Origin: an uncultured Thermodesulfobacteriota bacterium
GTDB lineage: Bacteria; Desulfobacterota; B13-G15
Reading direction: 5' to 3'
NCBI GenBank assembly: GCA_964543765.1
Contig: CAZIZI010000005.1
Location: 6,121 to 70,120, forward strand
DNA length: 64,000 nucleotides
Position 1 is the stretch's first letter; each line of letters starts with the position of its first letter. Both the position numbers and the translations under genes were made by a program. Shown here piece by piece: positions 15,511 to 64,000 of the stretch. The notes under the pieces were generated by a model that was not told the origin of the DNA, ran no database searches, and saw only the letters and a list, made by a program, of their open reading frames with translations.

Positions 15511-16008
15511 ATGGAAGTTTTAAGTGTTTTAAAGAAAAGGGTGAAGGCGAAAAAGGGTTTCACGCTGATTGAGTTGATGATCGTTGTTGCCATTTTGGGC
15601 ATTTTGGCCGCCATAGCTATTCCCACCTATATGGATTATACGAAAAGGGCGAAGGTAAGTGAGGCAATAAGCTTGCTTTCGGGAATGGCGAATGCCATAG
15701 CGGAGTATCATACTTCATATGGAAGTATGCCAACTAGCATAGACGATATTGGAGGAGGAAAAACAAGTAGATATGTGACCAGTATGACGTGGGGAGGAAG
15801 AGAGACATACGGCAACAACACTTATTGTTCCATAAATGCAACCCTTGGCAACATTGGAACAGGAGTTGATAGTAAGACGCTTACCCTTTATGTGATTTAT
15901 AGGGCAAATAATGAGACTTATGATAAATGTTGGGAATGGAGCATTGAGGATAAATACGTTCCTACAAGCGTTCGAGAAAAGAGATTTAATACTCCTAACT
16001 GTCCATGA
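15511..16008 (+). CDS. type IV pilin (prepilin with class III signal)
   Basis: KKG|[22 protein letters not shown] has Gly-1, Phe+1 and Glu+5. Three N-x-S/T sequons lie in the C-terminal globular part. Confidence 0.85.
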
Positions 16009-22614: not shown

Positions 22615-23807
22615 TGAGGGTTTTGCTTTTCGCTGGGAAAGGAGGAGTTGGTAAGACCAGTATCGCTGCCTCTACCGGTCTTCTGGCCGCAGAGCGCGGA
22701 TATAAGACCATTGTAGTATCCCTGGATACGGCCCATAATCTTTCGGATGTCTTTGAAGTGGGAGAAAACCTCTTTGATGTTAAGGGGGAACCGGTTGAGA
22801 TTTTTCCCAATCTATGGATTCAGGAGATCAACATCCAGGAGGAGATAAGGCGCCATTGGAAAGAGGTTCACGGCTATATTACCGCTCTATTCAGGGCTTC
22901 GGGGGTAAAGGAGATACTGGCCGAGGAGCTTGCGGTTTTGCCGGGCATGGAGGAGGTGAGCGGGCTTCTTTATCTTAACACCTACGCCAAGAAGGGAAGT
23001 TTCGACGTGGTGATTCTTGATTGTGCTCCTACTGGTGAGGCCATAAGGTTTGTGAGTTTACCCACCATCTTCGAGTGGTATATGAAGAAGTTCTTTAACC
23101 TCGAAAGAAAGATCGCTAAAGTTATAGGGCCTTTTGTGGAAAAGTTTTACAATGTCCCCATGCCTGAAGAGAGTTGTTTTGATGCGGTAGAGGAACTCTT
23201 CATGAGGCTCGATGGGGTTGAGAAGCTTTTAAACGATGCGCGGATAACTTCCGTTAGGCTTGTCACCAATCCTGAAAAAATCGTGGTGAAGGAGACCCAA
23301 AGGGCCTTTCTTTACTTCACGCTCTATGGGTTATGTGTGGACGGTGTGGTGGTCAACAAGGTGTTTCCCAAGGAACTGGAGGGTGAGTTTATAAAGGGGT
23401 GGCAGCTCCTTCAGGATAGATACCTGGAGGAGATAGAGACCTACTTTGCCCCTCTTCCGGTCTTTAAGGTTCCCCTTTACGAGGATGAGGTGAGTGGGAT
23501 TGAACGCTTAAAGAGGCTCGGGAAAGACCTTTACGGGGAGAATGACCCGATTCAAGTCTTCCGAAGTGAATCTCCCTTCAATTTCTACAAGGAGGATGGA
23601 CTTTATAAACTTTCGTTGAAAATGCCCTTTGTCACCCGGGATAAGATTCATCTGAGTAAAAGAGGGGACGAGCTCATAATCGAAGTGGGTGTGTTCAAGA
23701 GACACGTGATACTCCCCAAAACGATAGCCTCTTTAAGCCCTCGTAAGGCAAGATTCGAAGGCGATAATTTGGTCATTTCCTTTGAGGAGGGCGAAAATGC
23801 AATATAA
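22614..23807 (+). CDS. ArsA/GET3-family ATPase with a C-terminal Hsp20/CS-like domain
   Basis: AGKGGVGKTS P-loop and DTAHNLSDVF GET3/ArsA signature. C-terminal beta-rich region resembles alpha-crystallin/CS. TAATG overlap with lon. Confidence 0.7.
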   Translation: MRVLLFAGKGGVGKTSIAASTGLLAAERGYKTIVVSLDTAHNLSDVFEVGENLFDVKGEPVEIFPNLWIQEINIQEEIRRHWKEVHGYITALFRASGVKEILAEELAVLPGMEEVSGLLYLNTYAKKGSFDVVILDCAPTGEAIRFVSLPTIFEWYMKKFFNLERKIAKVIGPFVEKFYNVPMPEESCFDAVEELFMRLDGVEKLLNDARITSVRLVTNPEKIVVKETQRAFLYFTLYGLCVDGVVVNKVFPKELEGEFIKGWQLLQDRYLEEIETYFAPLPVFKVPLYEDEVSGIERLKRLGKDLYGENDPIQVFRSESPFNFYKEDGLYKLSLKMPFVTRDKIHLSKRGDELIIEVGVFKRHVILPKTIASLSPRKARFEGDNLVISFEEGENAI

Positions 23808-23988
23808 ATGCCCAATGGCCCAACTGTTTGAGAGGATAGAAAGATTAAGGTCTCCACGTTCCCCTTTTTGGGAACATATGAGAAAGGCGAAAATAGAGGT
23901 TCTGGAAGCCCTTAAGAGCCTTCTCGAGGAGAAGATCTCCAAACTAAAAGAAGAAGGGGAAAAGCTGAAAAAAATAGAAGTGGAATAG
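23797..23988 (+). CDS. small hypothetical protein (63 aa, predicted coiled-coil)
   Basis: ATG at 23797 overlaps the arsA-like gene end by 11 nt. K/E-rich helical sequence. No family recognised. Confidence 0.3.
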   Translation: MQYKCPMAQLFERIERLRSPRSPFWEHMRKAKIEVLEALKSLLEEKISKLKEEGEKLKKIEVE

Positions 23989-49501: not shown

Positions 49502-51748
49502 TTAGTACATTATACCCACTGCGAAATCCCATACCCCCCTCTTCTCCCCCTTTTTGGGGAAGAGATTATATCCCCAGTCTATCCTTATTGGCCCTAAAGG
49601 TGAATACCATCTTATTCCCGCTCCTACCGCGTGCTTTAAAGGTGTAATGTCCTTCCATTCGTCAAATCCCTTACCCACATCGTAAAACAAGGCGAGCTTG
49701 AGTCCAAGCTCTTTGCTTAAGGGATAAAGGAATTCGAAGTTAAACACCACCATCTTTAAAGCCCCTATAGGTTCCTTATTCTCATCCACTGGTCCTGCCA
49801 TGCCGTACTCGAAGCCTCTTATAGTCCTTAAACCTCCCACGTAAAACTTTTCGCCAAGGGGTATCTTTTTTCCCCCGTACTCCTCTATGATCCCGAGTTT
49901 ACTCCGGAAGTTAAAGACTAAGTCTCCTTTTATGGGTTTGAAATAACTTATTGAAAGACTCGCCCTAAGAAAATCCACATCACCCCCAAGAAACCTTCCC
50001 GCGTTGGTTAAGGTGAAATCGTTGTCCCATCCTAGGGTAGGACTGAAAGGATCATCTAATGTCCAGTAGCTAAAACTCAAGGTGGCTTTACTTGTGGTGC
50101 TTACTCCTTGGTAGGATTTAATGTACTCCGAAGCATCTTCGCTTACGTTGAAGACCTTTTGTCTTTCATAACGGTAAGAAAGGCTAACGCTTAAGCGATC
50201 CGTTAACTCCTTGCCAATTACTACGTCTCCTCCCCTTATACGATAATCATAAGTGGTATACTTATAAGTTTCATTGAAGAGGTCGAAACCTATTGAATAA
50301 GAGGAATCCAAAAACCTTGGGTCACTAAAGCCGAGGGAAAATTCGTTCATCTTCCCTCCGAGGGTGGCCTTTAAGTAGCCTCGATAGGCCCTTCCAAAGA
50401 GGTTCTTTTCGGATACTGAGATCATTCCCACCAAACCGTGGACCGAGCTATAACCGCCTCCGAATTGAAAGGCACCTGTTGGCATCTCTTCTACCTTCAC
50501 ATCCAAATCAAGCACATTGGGCCTTGCCCCTGGTACGGGATTAAAAGTCACTTCTTTAAATATGCCTAATCTTTTGATCCTCTTTTGGCTCTCCCTCATT
50601 TTAACGGCGCTATAGGTCTCACCTTCTGAAAGCTTTATCTCCCGCCTTATGACCTTGTCGTGGGTTTTGGTGTTTCCATGGATGTGGACGCGGCCAAGGT
50701 ATACCTTTTCTCCTGGTTCTACTTGGAAAACCACTTTTACGAGGCCTTTCTCTGGTTCCCGAAAACTAAGAGGCCGAACCTCTACAAAGGCATACCCTTT
50801 ATCCGCATAATAATCCACTAATTTTGAAACATCCCTTTCCACCTGGGAGATGCGATAAACCTTATTTGGTTTGGTCTCGAGCTTGACCTTCTTGAGGATT
50901 TTTTCCTTAGTCTCAATGAGTTCACCTTGAAGGTCTACAGTTCCCACCTTATAAGGGATTCCTTCCTCGATTTTTATTTCGATAAAAAGGTACTTACCAT
51001 CTCGTGAGGAGTTTATTTTGGGTTCATCGATTTTGACATCAAGGTACCCATTGTCCTGATAAAAATACCTTATACGTTGAAGGTCAACTTGTAAGATCTC
51101 TTTATTAAAAGTTCCCGATTTGGTTAACCAGCTTAGCCAATCCTTCTCCTTGGTTTGCATCAATTTTTTTAGGGTTCGAGAGCTAAAACTCCTGTTTCCC
51201 ACAAACCTTATCTCCCTTATAGCCCCCTTGGGCCCCTCATATATGTCTATGAAGACCCTTACTTCGTTATCGGGAAGTTCTTCCACTTCACTCTCAATGG
51301 AGGCCGTATAAAACCCCTTAGAAGCGTAAAGATTTTTCAAAGCCTCTTCGGTTTCTCGGAGCAACTCTTCTTCGAAAAACTCGCCTTTTTTTATCCTTGA
51401 AACCCCTTCGATCTCTTCCCGTTTCAACCTTTGGTAACCTGAGATGATTAAATCTTTGACCTTTGGCTTTTCTTGAACGATATAAGTTAAAATCACCCCG
51501 TCTTCTTTTTCCTCCAAATGGACCCTTATGTCGCGAAAATATCCGAGTGCGTAAAGAGCCTTTACGTCGTCAGAGACCACCTCTTTATCGAACGGTTCAT
51601 TTTCTTTGCTTTTTATCGTCCTTAGGATTACTTCCTTTTCTATTTTCACATTCCCCACAATTCTTATTTCCTTTATTGGCTTTTCACAAAGGCCCAAAGT
51701 CGGAAGAAGCGTCATAAGAAGGATTAACCAGGCCATTTTATTTACCAT
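49502..51748 (-). CDS. bamA: outer membrane protein assembly factor BamA
   Basis: 748 aa with signal peptide, POTRA repeats, C-terminal beta-barrel and terminal aromatic residue. Confidence 0.9.
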   Translation of the reverse strand: MVNKMAWLILLMTLLPTLGLCEKPIKEIRIVGNVKIEKEVILRTIKSKENEPFDKEVVSDDVKALYALGYFRDIRVHLEEKEDGVILTYIVQEKPKVKDLIISGYQRLKREEIEGVSRIKKGEFFEEELLRETEEALKNLYASKGFYTASIESEVEELPDNEVRVFIDIYEGPKGAIREIRFVGNRSFSSRTLKKLMQTKEKDWLSWLTKSGTFNKEILQVDLQRIRYFYQDNGYLDVKIDEPKINSSRDGKYLFIEIKIEEGIPYKVGTVDLQGELIETKEKILKKVKLETKPNKVYRISQVERDVSKLVDYYADKGYAFVEVRPLSFREPEKGLVKVVFQVEPGEKVYLGRVHIHGNTKTHDKVIRREIKLSEGETYSAVKMRESQKRIKRLGIFKEVTFNPVPGARPNVLDLDVKVEEMPTGAFQFGGGYSSVHGLVGMISVSEKNLFGRAYRGYLKATLGGKMNEFSLGFSDPRFLDSSYSIGFDLFNETYKYTTYDYRIRGGDVVIGKELTDRLSVSLSYRYERQKVFNVSEDASEYIKSYQGVSTTSKATLSFSYWTLDDPFSPTLGWDNDFTLTNAGRFLGGDVDFLRASLSISYFKPIKGDLVFNFRSKLGIIEEYGGKKIPLGEKFYVGGLRTIRGFEYGMAGPVDENKEPIGALKMVVFNFEFLYPLSKELGLKLALFYDVGKGFDEWKDITPLKHAVGAGIRWYSPLGPIRIDWGYNLFPKKGEKRGVWDFAVGIMY

Positions 51749-52450: not shown

Positions 52451-53675
52451 ACCTTAAGACCTCTACTGGATCTAGATTTGATGCTTTCCAAGCTGGGTAA
52501 AGCGATGAGAGAAGGCTTAATGAAAGGGCCAAGATCACAATAGCTACTGTATCCGTTAAATCCAGCTTTGATGGGACTTCCGTGATGTAATAGACATCTG
52601 GAGGCAGGAATTTAAGTCCGAATAAAGTTTCAAGCATATTGGCGATTCTCGAAATATTTAAAGACAGAATAATACCACCAAGGGTTCCGATAAAGGTTCC
52701 TATGGTGCCTATCAAAAGGCCTTGATAGAGGAATATCTTCAGGATGGTCTTCTTTTGAGCTCCCATCGACCTTAGGATGGCTATTTCTCGTCTTCTCTCC
52801 ATAACACTCATCATAAGGACGCCAATTATGTTGAAGGCTCCGACCGCCACAATTAGCGAGAGCAGGATAAACATCACCCTTCTTTCCATCCTTAAAGCGT
52901 AAAACAAGTTCTTGTTCATCTCCATCCAATCCCGGGTGAAAAAGAAACCTCCCAAAAGCCTTTGGATCTGTTTTGACACCCTATGGGCTTGATAAATATC
53001 CTTCACCCTTATGGCAAGATGGGTGACCTTATTATTCAAAGAGAGAAAACTTTGAACATCCTCAAGGGGAGCTAAGATTAAAGCCACATCGTAATCGTAC
53101 ATACCTGCTTGAAAGATGCCGCTTATTACTACGTCTTTTACTCTCGGGATCATGCCAAAAGGATGAAACCTTCCCGAAGGTGAGACTAACCTCAACCGAT
53201 CCCCAACCCTTACGCCCAGAATTTTTGAAAGCTCAACTCCTACCCAAACTTCACCGCTTTTTAAGTTCCTTTCGCCATCCAAAAGTTTTTCCTGAAGATA
53301 TGAAAGTTCCGGGGCCTCACGGGTTATCCCTCTTAAAACCGCACCGGAACTCGCGTAGTCCGAACTTACTATAATTTGGGTCAAAACCATGGGGCTTAAA
53401 GAACTTATTTCTTTTAAACCCTTGAGCTTTTTGCTCGCTTCCTCAGGTAAAAAGGGGCCTTGGTGATTTAATACTAACACATGGGCCGAAAGGGCCAAGA
53501 TTTTCTCCTTTATTGCCTCTTGGAAGCCGTTCATAACCGATAAGACTACTATGAGGGCTATTACGCCAAGACTCACCCCTAACAGGCATATGAAGGTTGC
53601 TATTGATATGAAACGTTCCCTTTTTTTCGACTTCAGATGCCTCAGTGACAAAAAAAGCTCGAAAGAAGGCCTCAA
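52443..53675 (-). CDS. lolC: lipoprotein-releasing system permease (LolC/LolE, FtsX family)
   Basis: 410 aa, 4 TM helices with a large periplasmic loop and FtsX C-terminal domain. Confidence 0.75.
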   Translation of the reverse strand: MRPSFELFLSLRHLKSKKRERFISIATFICLLGVSLGVIALIVVLSVMNGFQEAIKEKILALSAHVLVLNHQGPFLPEEASKKLKGLKEISSLSPMVLTQIIVSSDYASSGAVLRGITREAPELSYLQEKLLDGERNLKSGEVWVGVELSKILGVRVGDRLRLVSPSGRFHPFGMIPRVKDVVISGIFQAGMYDYDVALILAPLEDVQSFLSLNNKVTHLAIRVKDIYQAHRVSKQIQRLLGGFFFTRDWMEMNKNLFYALRMERRVMFILLSLIVAVGAFNIIGVLMMSVMERRREIAILRSMGAQKKTILKIFLYQGLLIGTIGTFIGTLGGIILSLNISRIANMLETLFGLKFLPPDVYYITEVPSKLDLTDTVAIVILALSLSLLSSLYPAWKASNLDPVEVLRYE

Positions 53676-55144
53676 GGTTTTTTCCTCATGTGGGGAAAGA
53701 GAATTACATCCCTTATAGAGGGAGAATCGGTAAAAAGCATGACCAAACGATCGATGCCTATTCCTTCGCCAGCTGTGGGAGGAAGCCCATATTCCAAGGC
53801 CAAAAGGAAATCCTCATCTATCAACCCCTCCCATTCCTCCAAGTTCCTCTTTTTCAACTGTTCTATAAACCTTTGCCTTTGGTCTTCGGGATCGTTCAAT
53901 TCGGTAAAACCGTTGGCTATCTCCTTTCCTAAGATGAAAAGCTCAAACCTCTCTACGAACCTTGGGTCATCGGTCTTTCTCCTGGCAAGTGGGGAAACTT
54001 CAACGGGATAATCGATTATGAAGGTGGGTTGGATCAAATGAGGTTGAACCAATTCTTCGAAAAGCAGATTGATCAACTCCCCGTGGGACTCATCGCCCTC
54101 TAATTTTAGTCCTAAACCCTTACAAGTCTCCAAAGCCTTGAGAGGGTCTCTTACCTCTTCATCTAAGCCCCTTTGAATTAAGGCTTGGACCATGGGGATC
54201 TTGGGCCAGGGTGGAGTGAGGTCAATTTCGATTCCCTGATAACTTATTTTGAGGGATCCGTTTGTCTTTTGGGCTATTTCACAGAACAATTCTTCCGTAA
54301 GATGCATTAAATCTTCATAATTGCTGTAAGCCTGGTAAAACTCGATCATCGTGAACTCGGGGTTATGAAGGCTTGAAACCCCTTCGTTCCGAAAGTTTTT
54401 CCCTATCTCAAAGACCTTTTCAAACCCTCCAACTACAAGCCTTTTAAGATAAAGTTCTGGTGCGATCCTCAAATAGAGCTCCATTTCCAGGACATTATGA
54501 TAGGTCTTAAAGGGTTTGGCCCGGGCTCCTCCGGGTATAGTTTGAAGGATAGGAGTTTCTACCTCGAGGAAGCCCCTTTTTATGAAAAATTCCCTTATCA
54601 TTTGGATGATAAGGGTACGCTTTCGAAAGGTCTCCCTTACGTGAGGATTTACGATTAGATCAAGGTATCTTTGACGATAACGGATCTCCACATCCTTTAA
54701 AGCATGCCATTTTTCGGGTAAGGGCCTTAGTGACTTACACAGAAGTTTAAACCAATGGACCTCCAGGGTTAACTCACCTGTTCGAGTCTTAAAGGGTTTG
54801 CCTCGGACGGCTATTATGTCTCCTATATCGAGCTTTTTGAAGAACTTTAGGACCTCTTCACCAAGGGTGTTTTTCCCAAGATAGATTTGGATGCGCCCTT
54901 CTTGGTCCTGAATATGAGAAAAAACAGCTCCTCCAAAATCCCTTATGCTCATTATCCTTCCGGCAATTAGATATTCTTCCTTTAAGTCTTGAAGTTCCGA
55001 TGTCGATAAATGGCCGTAGCGATCTTTAAGGTCTTTGGAACTACAATCGACTTTGAACCCTCTCGGATAAAGCTCTATACCCTCTTCTTTTAGCCTCTGC
55101 GCTTTTTCCTTCCTCTGTTTTAAAAGCTGGCTCTCCTCCATCAT
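53672..55144 (-). CDS. lysS: lysine--tRNA ligase (class II)
   Basis: N-terminal OB-fold followed by a class II catalytic core. Confidence 0.9.
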   Translation of the reverse strand: MMEESQLLKQRKEKAQRLKEEGIELYPRGFKVDCSSKDLKDRYGHLSTSELQDLKEEYLIAGRIMSIRDFGGAVFSHIQDQEGRIQIYLGKNTLGEEVLKFFKKLDIGDIIAVRGKPFKTRTGELTLEVHWFKLLCKSLRPLPEKWHALKDVEIRYRQRYLDLIVNPHVRETFRKRTLIIQMIREFFIKRGFLEVETPILQTIPGGARAKPFKTYHNVLEMELYLRIAPELYLKRLVVGGFEKVFEIGKNFRNEGVSSLHNPEFTMIEFYQAYSNYEDLMHLTEELFCEIAQKTNGSLKISYQGIEIDLTPPWPKIPMVQALIQRGLDEEVRDPLKALETCKGLGLKLEGDESHGELINLLFEELVQPHLIQPTFIIDYPVEVSPLARRKTDDPRFVERFELFILGKEIANGFTELNDPEDQRQRFIEQLKKRNLEEWEGLIDEDFLLALEYGLPPTAGEGIGIDRLVMLFTDSPSIRDVILFPHMRKKP

Positions 55145-55177
55145 AGACCCTAAAACTAACCCATTTTTGTGAGGTTA

Positions 55178-55501
55178 TCAACCTTCTTTAGTGAGTTCTT
55201 CTTCGAGCCATTTTATATAGGAGGGGTTTCCCATCAAGATAGGAAGGGCGATGATCTCGGGTACTTCGTAGGAATGTTCTTTAATCAGCAAGGCCTCAAC
55301 TTCTTTATATAACTCGGAGGAGGTCTTCATTAAGCATAGCCATTCTTCTGATTCTTCCTCTTTTCCTTTCCAAAGGTAAACGCTCTTGATGGGACCTACG
55401 ATTTGGATACAAGCGCAAAGCCTTTTTTGAAGGAGGAGTCTAGATATCCTTTCAGCTTCTTCCCTTTTTCCAAAGGTGCAAAGAACCACAAGATGTGTCA
55501 T
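55178..55501 (-). CDS. cutA: divalent-cation tolerance protein CutA
   Basis: 107 aa with CutA1 family motifs (VVLCTFGKREEAERIS...ELLSSAI-like). Confidence 0.75.
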   Translation of the reverse strand: MTHLVVLCTFGKREEAERISRLLLQKRLCACIQIVGPIKSVYLWKGKEEESEEWLCLMKTSSELYKEVEALLIKEHSYEVPEIIALPILMGNPSYIKWLEEELTKEG

Positions 55502-56283
55502 CTTGTTACCTCCTTTATGAAGTTTACAAGAATCTTAAGTTTCTCAATCATCCCCTCTTCAGTTTCGGGCAACTCTTTTGGGGTAATTTCGACAGTGATA
55601 AGTTCACGGTAATTTAAATGTTTTAAAAGATTGAGAAACCTCATCATGGGTAAATTCCCTTTACCTGGAAATAGATGTTGATCGGGAAATTTAAAGTCGC
55701 TCAGGTGGATGTTTTTAACGAGCCCTTCTTCGTAAAGGGAAAGGAAGAAAGGTATAAGATTGCTGTTTCTTGTTGCCATATGGGTTATATCGAGGGTTAA
55801 AGCGAGGCCTTTTTTCTTAGCGAATGCCTTTAAGCTCAAAGGATCGTTCCAGAAATAACCGGAAAATTTACTTTTTGGGTTTTCAACTGGCATTATCTCA
55901 ATAGAAAGATCCACCAAGCCTCCTGTTTCTTCCTTAAAATTTTTCACCCGGAACATCCACAACCAGAACAGGAACTCGAAATTTAACCAATTGGGAGGAT
56001 GAAAAGTTACAACCGAAGCCCCAAGAACCCTTGCCCACGTGATGGCTTTTTTAAAAGAGGAGACTTTTCCCCACCACCCACTAAACCTAAAAAAGGGCAC
56101 ATGAATTCCCTTAACGGGTAGGATTTCCCACGAAAGCCTTAATGCTTCTTCCAAATCATAAGGTTTAGATATGCGGGGACAGATGAGTATTTCCAGACCT
56201 TCAAACCCAGCTTCTTTTGCTATGTGAAAGATTTTGGCCAAGTGGAGTTTAAACAAACTGCCTGTTGAAAGACAAATTTTCAT
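55498..56283 (-). CDS. sugar phosphate isomerase/epimerase (xylose isomerase-like TIM barrel)
   Basis: AP-endonuclease-2/TIM-barrel pattern, 261 aa. Confidence 0.55.
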   Translation of the reverse strand: MKICLSTGSLFKLHLAKIFHIAKEAGFEGLEILICPRISKPYDLEEALRLSWEILPVKGIHVPFFRFSGWWGKVSSFKKAITWARVLGASVVTFHPPNWLNFEFLFWLWMFRVKNFKEETGGLVDLSIEIMPVENPKSKFSGYFWNDPLSLKAFAKKKGLALTLDITHMATRNSNLIPFFLSLYEEGLVKNIHLSDFKFPDQHLFPGKGNLPMMRFLNLLKHLNYRELITVEITPKELPETEEGMIEKLKILVNFIKEVTR

Positions 56284-56354
56284 CCTTGTAATTTCGTCTT
56301 TAATTCTATAAAAATTGATCTAATAAAAAAACACCTAAAAGGAGGATTCTGGGA

Positions 56355-57512
56355 ATGGAATATGCTGACCGCATCAAAGCCATTCCTCCTTATCTTTTTG
56401 CGGAGTTGGACAAAAGAAAGCAACAATTAAAACAAAAGGGCTTAGATCTCATCGACTTAAGTATCGGTGATCCCGATTTGGAAACCCCTCAACCTATTGT
56501 CCAAAAAATGTATGAGGAATTACAAAACCCCATAAATCATCATTACCCCGATTATGAAGGGCTTTTTGAATTCCGCGAAGCCGTGGCATTGTGGTATGAA
56601 AGACGTTTTGGAGTGAGCCTTGATCCTTCGCGGGAAGTCATGGCCCTTATTGGTTCGAAGGAAGGAATTGCTCATTTTCCCCTTGCCTTCGTCAATCCGG
56701 GGGATTATGTGCTCGTTCCCGATCCTGGATACCCCGTTTACCGAGCTTCAACCATCTTGGCGGGGGGCATTCCTTATTTTATGCCTTTAAAGGAAGAAAA
56801 CTTTTTTTTACCCGATCTGAGGGACATTCCAAGTGAAATAGCCAAAAGGGCTAAACTGATGTTCCTCAATTACCCGAATAACCCCACCGGGGCAACGGCT
56901 ACAAGGAAGTTCTTTCGTGAGGTCGTGGCCTTTGCCGAAGATTATGGGCTTATCGTAGCCCATGACTTGGCTTACAGTGAACTTTACTTCGATGAGCCAC
57001 CGACAAGCTTTTTGGCCGTAGAGGGAGCCAAAGAGATCGGAATCGAATTCCATTCGCTTTCCAAGACCTTTCGCATGACGGGATGGAGAATCGGGTTTGC
57101 GGTAGGCAATGCTCATTTGATCCAAGGGCTTGGAAAGGTTAAGACCAATGTGGACTCGGGGGTCTTTTGTGCCATTCAAAGGACCGCCATTTGGGCCCTC
57201 CAGGGCAATGTGGATGAGGAAGTTCAAAAATGGCAGATGATCTTAAAGAGAAGAAGGGATTTGATGGTAAATGGCCTCAAAGAATTGGGATTTAGCCCCT
57301 TTGTCCCTCAAGCCACCTTTTACCTATGGCTTAAGGTTCCCGAAGGTTATACTTCGGTTTCTTTTGCTAATAAACTTTTAGAGGTTGGCATTGTAGTTAC
57401 TCCTGGAAGTGGTTTCGGTCAAAACGGTGAAGGCTATATAAGAATAGCCCTCACGGTTTCAGAAGATCGCTTAAAGGAAGCCTTAAACCGGTTGAAGAAC
57501 TTAAGATCTTGA
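56355..57512 (+). CDS. class I/II PLP-dependent aminotransferase (LL-diaminopimelate aminotransferase-like)
   Basis: N-terminal RIKAIPPYLFAELD typical of DapL; NPTG motif; SKT PLP-lysine region. Confidence 0.65.
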   Translation: MEYADRIKAIPPYLFAELDKRKQQLKQKGLDLIDLSIGDPDLETPQPIVQKMYEELQNPINHHYPDYEGLFEFREAVALWYERRFGVSLDPSREVMALIGSKEGIAHFPLAFVNPGDYVLVPDPGYPVYRASTILAGGIPYFMPLKEENFFLPDLRDIPSEIAKRAKLMFLNYPNNPTGATATRKFFREVVAFAEDYGLIVAHDLAYSELYFDEPPTSFLAVEGAKEIGIEFHSLSKTFRMTGWRIGFAVGNAHLIQGLGKVKTNVDSGVFCAIQRTAIWALQGNVDEEVQKWQMILKRRRDLMVNGLKELGFSPFVPQATFYLWLKVPEGYTSVSFANKLLEVGIVVTPGSGFGQNGEGYIRIALTVSEDRLKEALNRLKNLRS

Positions 57513-57722
57513 CCATTCAAGTTCCATCTCACCCTTAAGCCTTTCGAGAAAATCTAAGAAGTCTTTTTCAAGCTCTTCTGGCACGTAAACTTCTAAAATC
57601 CCCTCTTTGGGGTCAATTGTTCGAGAAATGCCTAACCCCTCGTAAGATTCGAGCAGGAAGTTGAAGAAAGCTATTTTCTTTTTGGGTACCTTTACCATGA
57701 AGGTTTTAGTGTTACGGAACAT
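57501..57722 (-). CDS. DUF4911-like small protein
   Basis: 73 aa; FNFLLESYEGLGISRTIDPKEG resembles the DUF4911 pattern as I recall it. Confidence 0.45.
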   Translation of the reverse strand: MFRNTKTFMVKVPKKKIAFFNFLLESYEGLGISRTIDPKEGILEVYVPEELEKDFLDFLERLKGEMELEWSRS

Positions 57723-57758
57723 GAAAAAATGATATAAAACTCCTGAAAACTACAAAAG

Positions 57759-58283
57759 ATGAGAAAGGGGAAGGTCGTCCTTATTACTGGAGGGGTAAGA
57801 AGTGGGAAAAACCGCTTTGCCCAACAATTGGCCCTCAAATGGCCTCCTCCGGTTATTTACGTGGCTACGGCTTCAGCTGAAGATGAGGAGATGGAAATAA
57901 GGATAAAAAAACATCAACAATCAAGGCCAAAGGACTGGAGAACCGTAGAGGAGAAAAGTGACCTTATAGGGGTTCTCGGTTCCCTTAAAGAGGTCTCAAC
58001 GGTGATTGTAGACTGTCTGACCTTATGGATTTCGAATTTGATCTTTCTGGGCTTAAACGATGAAGAGATACTCGCAAGAGCTCAGGAGCTTAAAGAGTCT
58101 CTTTCCGTTTCGGATCATCGGGTGATTCTCATCACCAATGAGGTAGGGTGGGGGATAGTTCCGGCTTCAAAGCTCGGTAGACGCTTTCGCGATCTTCAGG
58201 GGATGGTGAACCAGATAATGGCCGAGGGTGCCGATGAGGTCTATCTTATGGTCTCTGGCCTCCCTTTAAGGATAAAACCATGA
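57759..58283 (+). CDS. cobU: adenosylcobinamide kinase / adenosylcobinamide-phosphate guanylyltransferase
   Basis: VLITGGVRSGKNRFAQ P-loop; 174 aa. Confidence 0.85.
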   Translation: MRKGKVVLITGGVRSGKNRFAQQLALKWPPPVIYVATASAEDEEMEIRIKKHQQSRPKDWRTVEEKSDLIGVLGSLKEVSTVIVDCLTLWISNLIFLGLNDEEILARAQELKESLSVSDHRVILITNEVGWGIVPASKLGRRFRDLQGMVNQIMAEGADEVYLMVSGLPLRIKP

Positions 58284-58984
58284 AAGCCCTCTTTACAGCT
58301 TTAAGCTTCCTCACGATCTTTCCATTTCCGCCCTTAGGGGATTTTAAAAAGGCTCCCGGCTTCTTCCCTTTGGTGGGCCTTTTTTTAGGAGCTGTATTGT
58401 GGGGTATTTCGATCCTCGTAGGGAAATTGCCCTCTTATCTTGTGGCTTTTCTCATAGTTCTCTCCTTGATCATTTTGACAAGGGGGCTTCATCTTGATGG
58501 CCTTTCCGATGCGTGTGACGCCTTAATGGGAGGGTTTACCCGAGAGGAGGTTTTAAGGATAATGCGGGATCCGCATACCGGTGCCTTTGGGGTAATGTCC
58601 ATTCAGACCGTAATAGCGGGAAAGGTCCTTTTTTTAATACCCCTTCTTCCTCAGAAAGGGGTTCTTTTTTTGTTTCCCATGTGGGGAAGAACGGGGGTGC
58701 TTTTACCCATGCTTTTTCTTCCTTATTTGAGAGAACAAGGAAAGGTAAGCCCCTTTTATCCTCCAAAAAGGGGGATGACGGTTTTTGGGTTAGTTTTAAG
58801 CGGTTCGGTGAGTTTTTTCCTTTTAGGAATTCGGGGGCTCCTTGGGTTCGGAATTTCTCTCCTATATGGCTTTATGGTTTCCTTTTATTACCGAAGAAGA
58901 CTCGGAGGTTATACGGGGGATCTTCTGGGGGCTTTAATCGAAACCACGGAGTTGGTGGGGCTTTTATGTCTGAACTTTTTTTGA
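58280..58984 (+). CDS. cobS: adenosylcobinamide-GDP ribazoletransferase (cobalamin synthase)
   Basis: Polytopic membrane protein with LSFLTIFPFP N-terminus. ATGA overlap with cobU. Confidence 0.85.
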   Translation: MKALFTALSFLTIFPFPPLGDFKKAPGFFPLVGLFLGAVLWGISILVGKLPSYLVAFLIVLSLIILTRGLHLDGLSDACDALMGGFTREEVLRIMRDPHTGAFGVMSIQTVIAGKVLFLIPLLPQKGVLFLFPMWGRTGVLLPMLFLPYLREQGKVSPFYPPKRGMTVFGLVLSGSVSFFLLGIRGLLGFGISLLYGFMVSFYYRRRLGGYTGDLLGALIETTELVGLLCLNFF

Positions 58985-60018
58985 AAGGCCATGGTGGGAA
59001 AGTCTTTTTGGCCTCGGAATTAACGGGACGGCCTCCTTGGGATCTTCTCGATTTTTCTTCCAATATAAATTGCTTCTTTGACCTCAAAAGGGTAAAGGAG
59101 ATCCTTATGGAAAATATCGACCTTCTCGCCTTTTACCCGGATCTTAACAGGGCTAAGCGAAGTCTCTCCAATTTTTTAAACCTTCCCAAAGAGAACCTAT
59201 TTTTGGGAAACGGCTCAGCGGAGCTGATTTTCCTGACCTTGCGGGTCTTAAAGCCTAAAAAGGTTCTTCTTCCAGTTCCTACATTTTCGGAATACGAAAG
59301 GGCAGCGATCGGTGTAGGGGCTCAAATTAAGTTCTTGGTTCTTGAAGAACAAAATGGTTTCCATATCCCAGAAGAGAGACTTATTAACTCCTTTAAGGAG
59401 GCGGATCTCTTAATTCTTTGTAATCCCAATAACCCCACTGGAAATCTTCTTAATGAGGAAATCCTCAAAGAATGTGCTCGTATTTCAAAAGGATGGCTTT
59501 TAATCGATGAAGCCTTTTTGGAGTTCGTACCGTTCGAAAAAAAACCAGACCTAACGGAAGAGATTTTCAAAAATAAGGTGATTCTCCTTCGTTCCCTTAC
59601 CAAAGTCTTTTCAATACCGGGAATAAGGGTAGGGTATTTGATCGGACCAAGCTTTTTTATAGAAAAGCTCAAAGAATTAGCCCCTCCTTGGGGCATAAAT
59701 GTGATGGCTCAGATAGTGTTTGAGCATCTTGAAACCTTATATTCCCTTTTTCTTAAGGGTTTTGAAGAGTTTTTAAAAGAAAAGGAAATTTTTCAAAAAG
59801 AGCTTTCTCAATTTTTTAAAGTTTTTCCCTCTCAAGCCAATTTCTTCATGTTTAAAGCTCCTAAAGAAGACCTTTTTCAAAGACTCCTTGAGAAAGGTTT
59901 TATAATAAGGGATCTTCAGGAACTTAGAGGGCTTGGGCCCGGCTTTTATAGGGTTTGTGTGAGGCGATCGGAAGAAAATAAGAAACTTATTCAAACCTTA
60001 AAGGAGGTTTTGGGATGA
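58966..60018 (+). CDS. cobD: threonine-phosphate decarboxylase (class I/II aminotransferase fold)
   Basis: HGG...LLDFSSNIN N-terminus as in Salmonella CobD; NPNNPTG; SLTKVFSIPGIRVGY. Start trimmed to ATG 58966. Confidence 0.75.
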   Translation: MSELFLKGHGGKVFLASELTGRPPWDLLDFSSNINCFFDLKRVKEILMENIDLLAFYPDLNRAKRSLSNFLNLPKENLFLGNGSAELIFLTLRVLKPKKVLLPVPTFSEYERAAIGVGAQIKFLVLEEQNGFHIPEERLINSFKEADLLILCNPNNPTGNLLNEEILKECARISKGWLLIDEAFLEFVPFEKKPDLTEEIFKNKVILLRSLTKVFSIPGIRVGYLIGPSFFIEKLKELAPPWGINVMAQIVFEHLETLYSLFLKGFEEFLKEKEIFQKELSQFFKVFPSQANFFMFKAPKEDLFQRLLEKGFIIRDLQELRGLGPGFYRVCVRRSEENKKLIQTLKEVLG

Positions 60019-61082
60019 ACCTTAGGGAGATACTCTCGGGAATTTCGCCTTTTGACCAAGAGGCCCACGAAAAAGCAAAAAGACGAACCGAAGACCTCCT
60101 GATGCCTTATCTTGCCTTGGGAAGGCTTCATGAGATCTCCTGGCAAGTTGCGGGGATAACGGGGAGATTTCCCGAAGGTCTTCCTCACAAGGCCATTATG
60201 GTCGGTGCGGGTGATCATGGGGTAGTGGAAGAAGGGGTAAGTCTCTTTCCGCAGGAGGTGACAAGGCAGATGATCTTTTCCTTTCTCAAAGGATGGGCAG
60301 CTATTAACGTATTGGCCGATCACGTGGGAGCGAGAGTCATAGTGGTTGACTTCGGTATAAAAGGACCGCTTGATCCCGTATGGCTTGAGGCGAAAGACCG
60401 CTTTTACCCCATGAAAGTAAGAGAAGGGACAAACAACATCACCAAAGGCCCTGCAATGAGTCCAGATGAGGCCGAGAAGACCATCCTAAGGGGTTTTGAG
60501 GTCTTCCAAAAAGAGTTCGAAAAAGGACTTGATATGATTGGTACAGGTGATATGGGGATAGGTAATACCACTGCAAGTGCCTGTGTCATATGTGCCATAA
60601 CCGGGTTTGATCCAGAGGAGATCGTGGGAAGAGGGACCGGCTTAAGTGATGAGGCCTTAAAAAGAAAAATTCAAGTGGTTCAAAGGGCCCTTGAAATAAA
60701 CAAACCCGATCCCGAGGACCCGATCGATGTGCTCCATAAGGTCGGAGGACTCGAGATAGGGGGCCTTACGGGTTGGATTCTCGGCGGGGCCAGGGCAAGG
60801 ATTCCGGTCGTAATTGACGGTTTCATATCCACGGCTTCGGCACTTTTGGCAGCAAAAATGGAACCTAAGGTAAAAGATTACCTTATAGCTGGACACCTTT
60901 CGGCCGAAAGGGGGCATAAAAAAGCCCTTGAATACCTCGGTTTAAAACCACTTCTGGACCTTCAAATGAGACTCGGAGAAGGCACTGGAGCCTGTTTGGC
61001 TTTTGAAATTGTTGAGGCGGCGGTCAAGATACTTTCAAAGATGCCAAGCTTTGAGGAGGCAGGGGTAAGTAGGGCAAAATAG
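60015..61082 (+). CDS. cobT: nicotinate-nucleotide--dimethylbenzimidazole phosphoribosyltransferase
   Basis: GTGDMGIGNTTASA signature. ATGA overlap with cobD. Confidence 0.85.
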   Translation: MNLREILSGISPFDQEAHEKAKRRTEDLLMPYLALGRLHEISWQVAGITGRFPEGLPHKAIMVGAGDHGVVEEGVSLFPQEVTRQMIFSFLKGWAAINVLADHVGARVIVVDFGIKGPLDPVWLEAKDRFYPMKVREGTNNITKGPAMSPDEAEKTILRGFEVFQKEFEKGLDMIGTGDMGIGNTTASACVICAITGFDPEEIVGRGTGLSDEALKRKIQVVQRALEINKPDPEDPIDVLHKVGGLEIGGLTGWILGGARARIPVVIDGFISTASALLAAKMEPKVKDYLIAGHLSAERGHKKALEYLGLKPLLDLQMRLGEGTGACLAFEIVEAAVKILSKMPSFEEAGVSRAK

Positions 61083-62009
61083 AAGCAGGAATAAGATTCC
61101 TATTGCTAAAAACAAAAGGCTTGTCCCATAACATAGCCTTACGGCTTTAGGGATATCCTCAAGGGTGGGGCTTCTGCCTTCTCCGATAAGGGGGAGATTT
61201 TGAAGTTGACCCATATACCTGGTTGGACCTCCTAATTTTAGGTTCAAGGCTCCAGCAAAAGCCGATTCGGGATAACCCGAGTTAGGGCTTTTTGTTTTAC
61301 CATGGTCCCTTATCATGGTAAAAAGGGCATTTTTTGCGTCCATCTTCAACAAAAGGGCTGCCAGAGGGGCTAAAAGGCCGGTGATTCTCGCCGGGATGAA
61401 GTTAAAGAGGTCATCCATTAAGGCAGAAAAACGACCAAAAAGTATATATTGACTCGATTTGTAACCTACCATGGAATCAAGGGTGTTTACAGCTTTGAAG
61501 GCCATCGCTAAAGGAGTTCCTCCCAAAAAGGTATAAAACAAAGGAGAGATAACCCCATCGGTTGTATTCTCCGCCACCGATTCTATAACCCCTCGGGCTA
61601 TATCTTCCTCAGAAAGATCTTGGGTATCCCTGGAAACCATAAAGGAAAGTCTTTTTCTTGATCCTTCAAGATCCCCACTTTTTAGAGCCAAAAACACCCT
61701 TAGAGCATGATCTTTCAAGTCCTTAAGTGAAATGGTGGTCCACAAAAGAAAAACCTCAACCACTCTCCCAACCCAAACCGAAAGACCATAAGCCAACTCC
61801 AGAACCAAAATGCTTATTCCAAAACTCAACCCCACCACTATAAACCATAAAACCACCCCTCCCCAAAAAGGAGGAAATATATTTCTCAAAATTCCTTCCA
61901 AACTCCTTATCAACCACCCCATCCCCTTTACCGGATGAGGAACCCCCCTGGGATCTCCTAAAACCAGATCCAATCCTACTGCAAAAAGGACCAACAAGGC
62001 TCCTTCCAT
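61035..62009 (-). CDS. cbiB: adenosylcobinamide-phosphate synthase (CbiB/CobD)
   Basis: Membrane protein with LDLVLGDPRGVPHPVKGMGWLI. Start placed at internal Met (MEGALLVL); the track ORF extends 33 codons further upstream. Confidence 0.75.
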   Translation of the reverse strand: MEGALLVLFAVGLDLVLGDPRGVPHPVKGMGWLIRSLEGILRNIFPPFWGGVVLWFIVVGLSFGISILVLELAYGLSVWVGRVVEVFLLWTTISLKDLKDHALRVFLALKSGDLEGSRKRLSFMVSRDTQDLSEEDIARGVIESVAENTTDGVISPLFYTFLGGTPLAMAFKAVNTLDSMVGYKSSQYILFGRFSALMDDLFNFIPARITGLLAPLAALLLKMDAKNALFTMIRDHGKTKSPNSGYPESAFAGALNLKLGGPTRYMGQLQNLPLIGEGRSPTLEDIPKAVRLCYGTSLLFLAIGILFLLLFCPTYPCLLKAWHL

Positions 62010-62059
62010 TTTTATTACCCTAAGTTTGACAAACGTGATTTTTTTGATAAATTCTAAAC

Positions 62060-62641
62060 ATGATGCGCCTTGGGATAAAATTAAATAATATCCTTTTATC
62101 CTCAGCATTAAAAGAGTTTATCAAGTCCTTTCTACCCTCCGAGGTTTCAATCGTTGAATTTTCTCAAGAAACTCCTTTGGAGGAGGTTGATCTTTTAATT
62201 TTGGATTACAAAACTCTTTTATCAATTGCTCGGTTTCCCGAGACGAAGGTTTTGCTTTTGGACACGGGTTTAAGCACTTCGGAAAAAAGGACGGCTTTTT
62301 TGCTCTATAATGTCAATGGGATCCTTCAATTGGATGCTTCTCCTGAGTTGTTATTAAAAGCCATTGAGAAACTCACAAGCGGTGAGCTATGGATGGATCA
62401 AGGAACCCTTAGGGAGATCGTGAATTACTCAAAGAACGGACGTGCGGTTTCTGTTTCCTTAACTCCTAGGGAAAAGGAGGTTTTAAGCTTGATATGTAAG
62501 GGGTATTCCAATAAAGAAATAGCCAAGAAGCTTTCCATAAGCCTTTCTACTGTTAAGAACATCCTTCGGAGTCTTTATCGCAAGTTGAACGTCTCAACTC
62601 GTTCAAGCTTACAGGCCCTTTTTATAGAAGGGGAGCCTTAA
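62060..62641 (+). CDS. LuxR/FixJ-family regulator with a degenerate receiver-like N-terminal domain (CsgD-like)
   Basis: C-terminal LTPREKEVLSLICKGYSNKEIAKKLSISLSTVKNIL HTH. The N-terminal domain lacks the canonical acidic pocket. Confidence 0.65.
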   Translation: MMRLGIKLNNILLSSALKEFIKSFLPSEVSIVEFSQETPLEEVDLLILDYKTLLSIARFPETKVLLLDTGLSTSEKRTAFLLYNVNGILQLDASPELLLKAIEKLTSGELWMDQGTLREIVNYSKNGRAVSVSLTPREKEVLSLICKGYSNKEIAKKLSISLSTVKNILRSLYRKLNVSTRSSLQALFIEGEP

Positions 62642-63555
62642 GACTCCTCTTTAAACTCATCCTTTCGTTCCCTAAGTTTCTTTAAGGCTTCTTCCTTTTC
62701 CCTTTCGTACTTTTCTATTATCCCTTTGAAAGCCTCAGGATCAGCGGGTTTCCACATCCCGATTTTAACCCCTTCGATTATTAGATCGTACACGGCCTTT
62801 TCTATCGCTTCCTGAAGGGCCATCTCCACGGGTTCATTTGCCGCAAACCCCGCTTCTGCTTCGAGCAGATGATTTAACCTTACGAACCGGAAGAACCCAG
62901 CCGAAAGCTGTTGAGATAAAACGACCTTGGTGGCCTGCACAGTTTTTAAAACGGCCCCGTTTTTAACCGAGACGGCTCTTACGTAAACGGTGATCCTATC
63001 GACCCGGTATTGAGCAGAACCGCCAGCTACAAAGTACCTGGCCCCTATACCTCCTGATACTATGTTTGTGTCATATCCTATAACACCACCTTCTAATAAG
63101 ACCCCAGCGTAAATCAGGGGCTGAAGGATCTGGCTTATGGCGCTTTTCAAATTTTCATCGGCATACTGACTCCCCATTTGTTGGATGATTTTCCGTTCCT
63201 GAAGCAGATTGCTTAAGCTCTCCCTTTCCACCGGGATGAACCAACCGCTGTCCTCAAGGGCTTTAATAAGGATAGAAGTAGCCCCTTGAGTCACCGCTGT
63301 GGAGAAGTTGGTGGAGGTGGTGGGGGGTTTGTACTGGCCCGTTTGATCCCGGAACTTATAAACCGCTACTGGTACCCTCTTTTCGGGTCTTGGCAATGAG
63401 ACAAGATCCTTATGGATGCTCGTTATGTATTCGGGGCCGCTTATGGCCTTCTCATAAAAGGGGTAGTGTAAAGGACCAGCGCATCCTAAAATAAGAAGTA
63501 TCCCTCCTAAAAAGACGTATTTTTCTTTAATTCCCTTCATGGTCTCCCCTCTCAA
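62638..63555 (-). CDS. csgG: curli production assembly/transport lipoprotein CsgG family
   Basis: Lipobox LILGCAG, PVAVYKFRDQTGQ and GGVIGYDTNIVSGGIGARYF match CsgG signature regions. Confidence 0.75.
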   Translation of the reverse strand: MRGETMKGIKEKYVFLGGILLILGCAGPLHYPFYEKAISGPEYITSIHKDLVSLPRPEKRVPVAVYKFRDQTGQYKPPTTSTNFSTAVTQGATSILIKALEDSGWFIPVERESLSNLLQERKIIQQMGSQYADENLKSAISQILQPLIYAGVLLEGGVIGYDTNIVSGGIGARYFVAGGSAQYRVDRITVYVRAVSVKNGAVLKTVQATKVVLSQQLSAGFFRFVRLNHLLEAEAGFAANEPVEMALQEAIEKAVYDLIIEGVKIGMWKPADPEAFKGIIEKYEREKEEALKKLRERKDEFKEES

Positions 63556-63983
63556 AGGTATTTTGGCATTTCAAGGCGTGTGCTTTCGCCTGTGGAAAGA
63601 TCATATATCTCAAAAATGTAATTATCCCCTGTTGGATCAAAAGTTATCCGAAAGTTCCCAATGGTATAAGTGGCTGGTTCCTCTGGCAATTGATTATTCT
63701 CCCCGAAGATTTGATCGAGCATGATGTCGGCCATTCGGTATATGAGTTGGTTGGTGAAACTTTCGGAGAATCTCTCAAGTAATGATTTGGGTTTGTAAAA
63801 TGAGGTCGATTTTTCTTTGAAGGTATTTTGTAGCTGGGCTTCTTGTAAAAGAAAACTTCCATAAAGGGGATCACCGCCAAAAGAAGGATTAAGGAACTTA
63901 AAGGTAAGTTCCGATGAAAAGCTCCGAAAACTCAAAATAAGGGAGACCAAAAACAAAAAAACAATCAATTTTACATATTTCAT
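63552..63983 (-). CDS. csgF: curli assembly protein CsgF family
   Basis: LTFKFLNPSFGGDPLYGSFLLQEAQLQN closely parallels E. coli CsgF [27 protein letters not shown]. Signal peptide present. Confidence 0.7.
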   Translation of the reverse strand: MKYVKLIVFLFLVSLILSFRSFSSELTFKFLNPSFGGDPLYGSFLLQEAQLQNTFKEKSTSFYKPKSLLERFSESFTNQLIYRMADIMLDQIFGENNQLPEEPATYTIGNFRITFDPTGDNYIFEIYDLSTGESTRLEMPKYL

Positions 63984-64000
63984 TTTAACTTCCTCCTTTC

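Follow-up and report, generated by a model that had tools for sequence, protein, structure and literature searches.

The 64,000-nucleotide (nt) window analysed here (positions 6,121 to 70,120 of contig CAZIZI010000005.1, from an uncultured Thermodesulfobacteriota bacterium) ends inside a group of curli genes. Judging from the sequence, this edge very probably holds the last genes of a complete curli (type VIII secretion) cluster in a thermophilic diderm. The last segment of the window (62060-64000) holds exactly three open reading frames (ORFs), coding for a LuxR-type regulator on the plus strand and for CsgG and CsgF on the minus strand. The exact CsgF sequence is also present on public metagenome contigs, including L001 (55 kb) and L002 (54 kb), which match window positions 53552-64000 at 99.94% identity (6-7 mismatches in 10,449 nt). 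Positions 1-7430 of L001 were taken to continue the window; subtracting an L001 position from 71430 gives the window position. On this continuation the minus-strand operon could be followed back to its head, and the gene order is subunit 1, subunit 2, a csgC/H-like gene, csgE, csgF and csgG.

An earlier note on this DNA had expected csgE and amyloid subunit genes beyond position 64000 and had named their absence as the outcome that would point to a different secretion role for CsgG and CsgF. Inspection of the flank on the near-identical contigs revealed csgE and two genes with curlin repeats, as well as a CsgC/H-like gene, and the outcome speaking against curli therefore did not occur. From its far end, the order on L001 toward csgF and csgG is a probable tuf, a tRNA cluster, a two-component pair, an activator gene, a 269-nt gap and the curli genes. 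The features are as follows; a sister species in which several of them are kept is described below.

Window 62026-62053, plus strand: candidate promoter of the LuxR gene, sigma-70-like (TTGACA, 16 nt, TG-n-TAAATT), by consensus match only
Window 62060-62641, plus strand: LuxR-family regulator ORF, 193 amino acids (aa); gene caller start at 62063
Window 62638-63555, minus strand: csgG ORF in its longest form, 305 aa, TTG start at 63555
Window 62638-63540, minus strand: csgG in its preferred form, 300 aa, ATG at 63540; predicted outer-membrane lipoprotein secretion channel
Window 63552-63983, minus strand: csgF, 143 aa; predicted periplasmic/surface adaptor, with an N-terminus inserting into the CsgG barrel
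Window 63999-64000, minus strand: final 2 nt of the csgE stop codon, where the operon exits the window
L001 7069-7431: csgE; Pfam PF10627, expectation value (E) 3.2e-21; NCBIfam 49.1 bits versus a cut-off of 137
L001 6677-7072: CsgC/H-like gene, 131 aa, recognised by profile search and fold
L001 6163-6669: curlin-repeat subunit 2, 168 aa, PF07012
L001 ~6119-6143: conserved GC-rich hairpin, kept in the sister species
L001 5593-6081: curlin-repeat subunit 1, 162 aa, PF07012
L001 5444-5458: candidate sigma-54 promoter, cGGCATAAAAGTTGC
L001 5376-5390 and 5320-5334: two GTAAA-N5-TTTAC palindromes
L001 3836-5323: sigma-54 activator, 495 aa, with PilZ, zinc ribbon, AAA+ and HTH_8 domains

Secretion genes and curlin-repeat subunits

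CsgG matches Pfam family PF03783 with an E of 5.4e-63 (212 bits, cut-off 20.8), and its residues 14-278 align with the solved structures of E. coli CsgG (E 1e-61). Compared with the E. coli channel, the N-F of the constriction loop is kept ('TNFSTAV'), and an ILG-C lipobox can be read in the 300-aa form. CsgF covers the whole of Pfam profile PF10614 (E 6.3e-37); its mature N-terminus is SELTFKFLNPSFGGDPLYGSFLLQEAQLQN, and the segment TFKFLNPSFGG...LLQEAQLQN is present. These data bear out the identities that had been proposed for the pair. The true start of csgG is probably the ATG at 63540, which is preceded by GAGGGGAG and lies 11 nt from the end of csgF, with the TTG at 63555 as an alternative; the ATG is preferred because the 300-aa form is found in public collections, where the 305-aa TTG form has no exact match. 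At the other end of csgG, its stop codon (62638-62640) and the TAA of the LuxR gene on the opposite strand (62639-62641) share the palindrome TTAA at 62638-62641, confirming the 4-nt overlap of the two convergent genes that had been described.

Both subunits carry a signal peptide, as read from the sequence, and repeats of the form A-x-I-x-Q-x-G-x-x-N-x-A-x-I-x-Q, four in subunit 1 and five in subunit 2, whose register aligns across relatives. Pfam Curlin_rpt (PF07012; cut-off 20.7 bits) matched three stretches of subunit 1 with 40.9 bits and five stretches of subunit 2 with 53.2 bits. Asn and Gln together make up 13.6% and 22% of the two proteins, compared with 5.7% for the ORFs of the window. 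Subunit 2 is nearer to CsgB than to CsgA (NCBIfam 67.5 versus 38.3 bits; CsgB cut-off 165). Subunit 1 is the fastest-evolving gene of the set, and a single-sequence AlphaFold2 (AF2) model, of low confidence (predicted local distance difference test, pLDDT, 51), places four strand-turn-strand units in it; this model was not used in the fold search. Directly after subunit 1 stands the conserved GC-rich hairpin, owing to which, we infer, the message for subunit 1 would exceed that for the downstream genes, making subunit 1 the major subunit.

Several further observations concern the subunits. Ahead of its repeats, subunit 1 has an N-terminal segment of ~55 aa (L001 5593-5830) with five Cys residues that are kept in the sister species. 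In E. coli CsgA, a secretion signal (N22) is found where subunit 1 has this Cys-rich segment, and to our knowledge E. coli CsgA is without Cys. Three related curli loci from metagenome-assembled genomes (MAGs) of thermophiles served for comparison, L003 (Thermodesulfatator), L004 (Thermodesulfovibrio) and L005, and Cys-rich N-termini also occur in the subunits of L004. In L003, a run of N (~8100-8200; masked or an assembly gap) follows the start of a second short ORF, upstream of the sole visible subunit gene, and may conceal another one. The ~60 nt before the subunit-1 start (L001 5533-5592) are near invariant between two species, with indels just upstream, and this leader may be a translational or small-RNA control element. 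No Rfam match was obtained for the leader plus hairpin, the sole match being at chance level (E 0.82), and no Rfam family, rRNA included, was detected in the window at gathering thresholds.

Searched as a single sequence, the 131-aa protein gave only weak matches, all of them to CsgC or CsgH (NCBIfam E 0.0036 and 0.0093; Pfam 0.07; PDB CsgC 0.22), and phmmer returned only 15 relatives among 1.84 billion representatives. The top phmmer match, P0057, is a 2055-aa perfect tandem repeat that sums weak matches; it was rejected as an artefact unrelated to CsgC and left out of a profile built from 13 relatives, the query and one close relative. With this profile, CsgC was the sole match in the PDB (E 0.0014). 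The AF2 model is a seven-stranded beta-sandwich (pLDDT 84.8, and ~95 in the mature domain), for which Foldseek ranked E. coli CsgC (template modelling (TM) score on the target 0.78) and Rhodopseudomonas CsgH (0.65) as the top two of 350,542 PDB chains. Homologues occupy the same position in L003 and L004. On profile and modelled fold, we conclude that the ORF encodes a CsgC/CsgH-type protein, with a predicted role as amyloid inhibitor; such an inhibitor is counted as an accessory, not a universal, curli component.

The proposed mechanism follows E. coli curli biology. By this analogy, the CsgC/H-like beta-sandwich would keep Sec-exported subunits unpolymerised in the periplasm, and CsgE would pass them on to the outer-membrane channel formed by the CsgG lipoprotein. 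The conserved N-terminus of CsgF would plug the CsgG barrel, coupling secretion to nucleation at the cell surface, where the subunits would build an extracellular beta-solenoid amyloid fibre as biofilm matrix.

Regulatory genes at the two ends of the cluster

The 495-aa activator encoded ahead of the subunit genes has a Sigma54_activat domain (PF00158, E 2e-75) with GAFTGA at residues 260-265, an HTH_8 domain (E 1.7e-10), a zinc ribbon (CPYC...CPRC) and an N-terminal PilZ domain (Pfam E 1.5e-4) in which both binding motifs are intact (RIDIR at residues 3-7 and NISLGG at 29-34). The features of all four domains are kept in the sister species. The 269-nt gap that separates the activator gene from subunit 1 contains cGGCATAAAAGTTGC, the only GGCA-N6-TTGC match in L001; 0.28 matches would be expected across the whole L001 locus, and the chance of one on the right strand within the gap is ~0.002. 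The corresponding motif of the sister species, aTGGCATAGAAGTTGC, is nearer to the consensus (TGGCAT...TTGC) and is intact despite indels of 18 nt and 25 nt just downstream. The sister species retains both GTAAA-N5-TTTAC palindromes, which lie 56 bp apart at ~-87 and ~-142; three such palindromes were found where 0.01 were expected. Expression would probably start at the sigma-54 promoter upstream of subunit 1, driven by the adjacent PilZ-domain enhancer-binding protein, which would make cyclic di-GMP (c-di-GMP) the likely input signal. On these features, we regard sigma-54-dependent, c-di-GMP-responsive transcription of the operon as an evenly balanced proposition.

A PilZ-type activator was found in 0 of 80 related curli loci, and no GG-N10-GC (-24/-12) motif was found in the gaps between the LuxR and subunit genes of L003-L005. 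Because of this, the combination of PilZ activator and -24/-12 motif looks specific to the window's genus. Our literature search found no report linking a PilZ-domain bacterial enhancer-binding protein (bEBP) to curli.

Elsewhere in the window, exact GTAAA-N5-TTTAC palindromes stand at 51551-51565 (in bamA) and at 55650-55664 (in an AP-endonuclease-family gene), with 0.03 expected; they may be extra sites of the same regulator or a coincidence. GGCA-N6-TTGC is also present at window 15663-15676 (plus strand) and 23799-23812 (minus strand), a count of about chance level. Divergent from the activator, L001 1630-3773 encodes an sCache/HAMP histidine kinase and an OmpR-type regulator, and this two-component pair, which is kept in the sister species, may feed into curli control. 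Further out, a tRNA Thr-Gly-Tyr-Thr cluster (L001 1240-1587) adjoins the probable tuf and is also kept in the sister species.

The regulator at the 3' end had been described as a LuxR-type protein with a degenerate receiver domain, as in CsgD, and the searches agree with this description. Its GerE/LuxR helix-turn-helix (HTH) was recognised by Pfam (E 3e-17), and no Response_reg match was obtained for the receiver-like N-terminal domain, in which NN takes the place of the acidic DD after strand 1 and Leu that of the conserved Lys. The central Asp (D49) has been retained and, together with the helix-6 Trp (W111), is invariant in an alignment with homologues. The closest solved relative is VpsT (3KLN), which matches over residues 13-187 of the full-length protein (E 2.7e-15). 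The NCBIfam CsgD model matches with an E of 1.3e-16 (60.9 bits), which lies under its equivalog cut-off of 250, and the MctR model scores marginally higher (63 bits); the CsgD-like type is upheld with this reservation. VpsT binds c-di-GMP through the motif W[F/L/M][T/S]R. At this position VpsT has WLTR, the window protein WMDQ and the sister species WLDQ. Since the Arg of the motif is lost, binding of c-di-GMP in the manner of VpsT is unlikely and was set aside. Judging by these residues, the protein is CsgD/VpsT-like and probably neither phosphorylated nor binding c-di-GMP in VpsT fashion.

In L003, L004 and L005, a homologue with 31-33% identity immediately precedes the subunit genes in the same orientation, and weaker homologues were seen in a few Saprospiraceae curli loci. 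In the window's genus the gene stands at the opposite end of the cluster and is convergent with csgG. Its candidate promoter (L001 9404-9377(-)) matches 10 of 12 consensus positions and has an extended -10 TG. Because homologues head curli clusters in three other thermophile lineages, we consider the convergent LuxR gene probably a second, curli-linked regulator. Its left neighbour is cbiB, followed by a block of cobalamin genes. The longest cbiB ORF (start 62108) would cross the promoter and start of the LuxR gene; gene callers put the cbiB start at 61994, which leaves ~65 nt between the two divergent genes.

Maintenance, host and alternative readings

From the two-component genes through to the cobalamin genes, the sister species (78-92% amino-acid identity) has its genes arranged identically. 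Between the two species, the ratio of non-synonymous to synonymous substitution rates (dN/dS) was 0.05 for csgG, 0.07 for csgF, 0.14 for csgE, 0.19 for the csgC/H-like gene, 0.25 for subunit 2 and 0.45 for subunit 1, and 0.14 and 0.12 for the LuxR and activator genes, respectively. These values are comparable to those of the neighbouring cobalamin genes (0.06-0.15). All genes of the curli cluster are under purifying selection.

The window also encodes BamA, RpoD, DnaG and Lon and therefore represents a chromosomal region of a diderm. Its 53 ORFs have an IVYWREL (Ile, Val, Tyr, Trp, Arg, Glu and Leu) fraction of 0.458 and a charged-minus-polar bias of 12.7, both typical of thermophiles, and the Zeldovich regression gives an optimum near 90 degrees C, which we read only as 'clearly thermophilic'. 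The composition supports the thermophile that the earlier note had assumed, and the sequence indicates a thermophilic diderm related to Thermodesulfobacteriota as host. A 673-aa protein at window 12806-14827 (plus strand) has STT3/PglB-type oligosaccharyltransferase domains (E 9e-10 and 6e-9) and is a possible enzyme of N-linked protein glycosylation.

Among the CsgG matches listed (GTDB species representatives), the closest three belong to MAGs of Thermodesulfatator (79% identity), Thermodesulfovibrio (68%) and Thermosulfidibacter (65%), that is, to thermophiles of three phyla. The next relatives among these matches are Bacteroidota and Balneolaceae (49-60%), and no Proteobacteria appear in the best 80 CsgG matches listed. 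The pattern of matches points to past transfer among thermophiles and to an affinity with the Bacteroidota type. GC content was tried as an indicator of horizontal acquisition and rejected, the 2.5-point difference between operon (42.1%) and window (44.6%) not being informative.

Some points weigh against a working curli system under sigma-54 control. Beyond position 64000 the genes are those of the near-identical metagenome contigs and not of the window's own record, and the system is known here from its genes, from which we infer fibre formation. All proteins score well under the enterobacterial equivalog cut-offs of NCBIfam (for CsgF, 41.7 versus 171 bits), and are therefore distant family members, not enterobacterial orthologues. 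At window 63029 (L001 8401), CsgG of the window has Val ('GARYFVAGG') in place of a Gly that is kept in every CsgG relative examined. For the operon head, the PilZ match scores 22.5 bits, equal to the Pfam gathering threshold. Taken by itself, the sigma-54 motif falls short of significance across L001, as one or more matches turn up in 25% of shuffled sequences; what gives it weight is its position and its conservation, and this conservation covers just two effective species. The pattern of the palindromes was chosen post hoc, and two further copies lie within genes of the window. As to the Val in CsgG, Gly is found at that position (GA[RK]YFG) in E. coli, in the three thermophile MAGs and in both L001 and L002. 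The Val form is known from one contig only and may reflect either a sequencing error or a true difference of this strain, which might be damaging.

Two other accounts of the cluster as a whole were considered. CsgG belongs to a large family with many non-curli paralogues (PMC3521004), one of which, HfaB, is matched weakly (43.6 bits, E 2e-11), and no subunit gene is visible within the window itself, so that the CsgG/CsgF pair might serve another kind of secretion. The NCBIfam CsgG model, however, scores far higher than HfaB (222 bits, cut-off 505), CsgE and CsgF mark curli loci with high specificity (PMC3521004 Table 1), and on the 99.94%-identical contigs csgE, the CsgC/H-fold gene and two Curlin_rpt genes belong to the same operon; this effectively refutes a non-curli role, which we consider extremely improbable. 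The cluster might instead be a recently acquired passenger, for example from Bacteroidota, that is unexpressed or decaying, or the contig might be mis-binned. Horizontal transfer at some point is implied by closest relatives in three phyla; after these three, all the next CsgG matches listed are Bacteroidota, and the lower GC of the operon and the Gly-to-Val change in CsgG could be read in the same sense. Yet both species have all ORFs intact and share the same synteny between the tRNA/two-component block and the cobalamin genes, dN/dS (0.05-0.45) is similar to that of flanking housekeeping genes, and the GC difference is small. The contig also carries lysyl-tRNA synthetase and cobalamin genes, and the window BamA, RpoD and DnaG. 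A passenger or mis-binned contig is very unlikely on this evidence, and a maintained curli cluster remains our preferred interpretation.

The control of the operon is a closer matter. Transcription could start at a sigma-70 promoter controlled by the CsgD-like LuxR protein, in the way known from E. coli, with the PilZ protein and the -24/-12 motif coincidental. Three other thermophile lineages place the LuxR gene directly upstream of the subunits with no GG-N10-GC there, a PilZ-type activator is missing from all 80 related loci, weak sigma-70-like hexamers are present in the intergenic region as well, and, as noted, the sigma-54 motif is not significant by itself across L001. Against this stand the ~0.002 chance of the motif in the gap, its closer consensus in the sister species and its survival amid nearby indels. 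In addition, the conserved palindromes at ~-87 and ~-142 lie at typical enhancer distances, and the activator keeps GAFTGA. We doubt the sigma-70 explanation but take it as a realistic possibility; both modes of control could also operate together. Our fullest proposal is a rewired curli operon, with a sigma-54 promoter, an activator that senses c-di-GMP directly through PilZ and a CsgD-like protein displaced to the 3' end, producing a working amyloid matrix at or above ~70 degrees C from N/Q-rich subunits that include a Cys-rich N-terminal module. Taken whole it is tentative, and we lean somewhat against it. If true, it would be the first case of a PilZ-bEBP directly controlling a functional amyloid, together with a natural heat-stable curli.

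Comparison with known curli and matrix systems

Curli are the best-understood bacterial functional amyloids and a widely used engineering scaffold. Their loci are known in ~22% of bacterial genomes (PMC10192328). A Thermodesulfobacteria strain with a curli locus complete except for csgC was recorded in 2012 (PMC3521004), and curli genes were noted in hot-spring Thermodesulfobacteriaceae MAGs in 2025 (PMC12297393). The suggestion that curli in a thermophile would be noteworthy thus holds insofar as the locus is real, and its novelty is tempered by these two reports; the general picture is unchanged because curli loci were already documented in Thermodesulfobacteria and many phyla. What is added here is the full operon, a predicted CsgC/H-fold gene in Thermodesulfobacteria-type loci, purifying selection and a plausible genus-specific rewiring of regulation. 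A complete, selectively maintained set, in a proteome whose composition suggests growth above ~70 degrees C, would offer a heat-adapted set of subunits, channel and chaperone. The Asn/Gln-rich subunits raise a question of chemistry, both residues being readily deamidated at high temperature. The regulatory layout would serve as a simple, testable example of matrix genes responding to c-di-GMP via a PilZ-sigma-54 activator.

Compared with the curli of E. coli and Salmonella (csgBAC, csgDEFG), all seven functional classes are matched at the locus, and the N-terminal FxNPxFGG...LLQxAQxQN segment of E. coli CsgF is shared by the window protein. The constriction residue Y51 of E. coli CsgG and N17 of CsgF, however, are not conserved. 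E. coli has two divergent operons, whereas here a single unidirectional operon holds subunit 1, subunit 2, C/H, E, F and G; control in E. coli is by sigma-S with MlrA and CsgD, and here by a candidate sigma-54-type promoter with an adjacent PilZ activator. The host is, by its amino-acid composition, a thermophile, unlike E. coli, and the Cys-rich N-terminus of ~55 aa is a feature of subunit 1.

With CsgD, the LuxR protein of the window has in common a LuxR/GerE HTH and a receiver-like domain without a phospho-acceptor pocket. CsgD is encoded by the first gene of csgDEFG, divergent from csgBA, while the window gene is convergent with csgG and has its own candidate promoter. With VpsT and CsgD together, both master regulators of biofilm formation, it shares the link to matrix genes, the central Asp, the helix-6 Trp and the GerE HTH. 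Among c-di-GMP-linked enhancer-binding proteins, the activator may be compared with FleQ, EpsI/Nla24 and MXAN_2902, being itself a sigma-54 AAA+ protein adjoining matrix genes. The PilZ-bEBP architecture is known from MXAN_2902 of Myxococcus xanthus, whose PilZ domain is predicted not to bind c-di-GMP (PMC8316039). Both proteins have an N-terminal PilZ domain on a bEBP; in the activator described here, the PilZ motifs RxxxR and (D/N)xSxxG are intact. FleQ binds c-di-GMP at its AAA+ domain, and not via PilZ as proposed here.

Also among the nearest known systems are the locus of Dueholm et al. (2012) and L003-L005, which share the phylum-level setting, match in gene content (csgA/B, D-like, E, F and G) and have a CsgG 65-79% identical to that of the window. 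The single Thermodesulfobacteria curli locus of that study was scored as being without csgC (PMC3521004), whereas the window cluster, L003 and L004 have a gene with the predicted CsgC/H fold; most likely a divergent member of the csgC family was overlooked. L003-L005 carry the LuxR gene at the head of the cluster, whereas the window's genus has LuxR at the tail and the PilZ-sigma-54 activator at the head.

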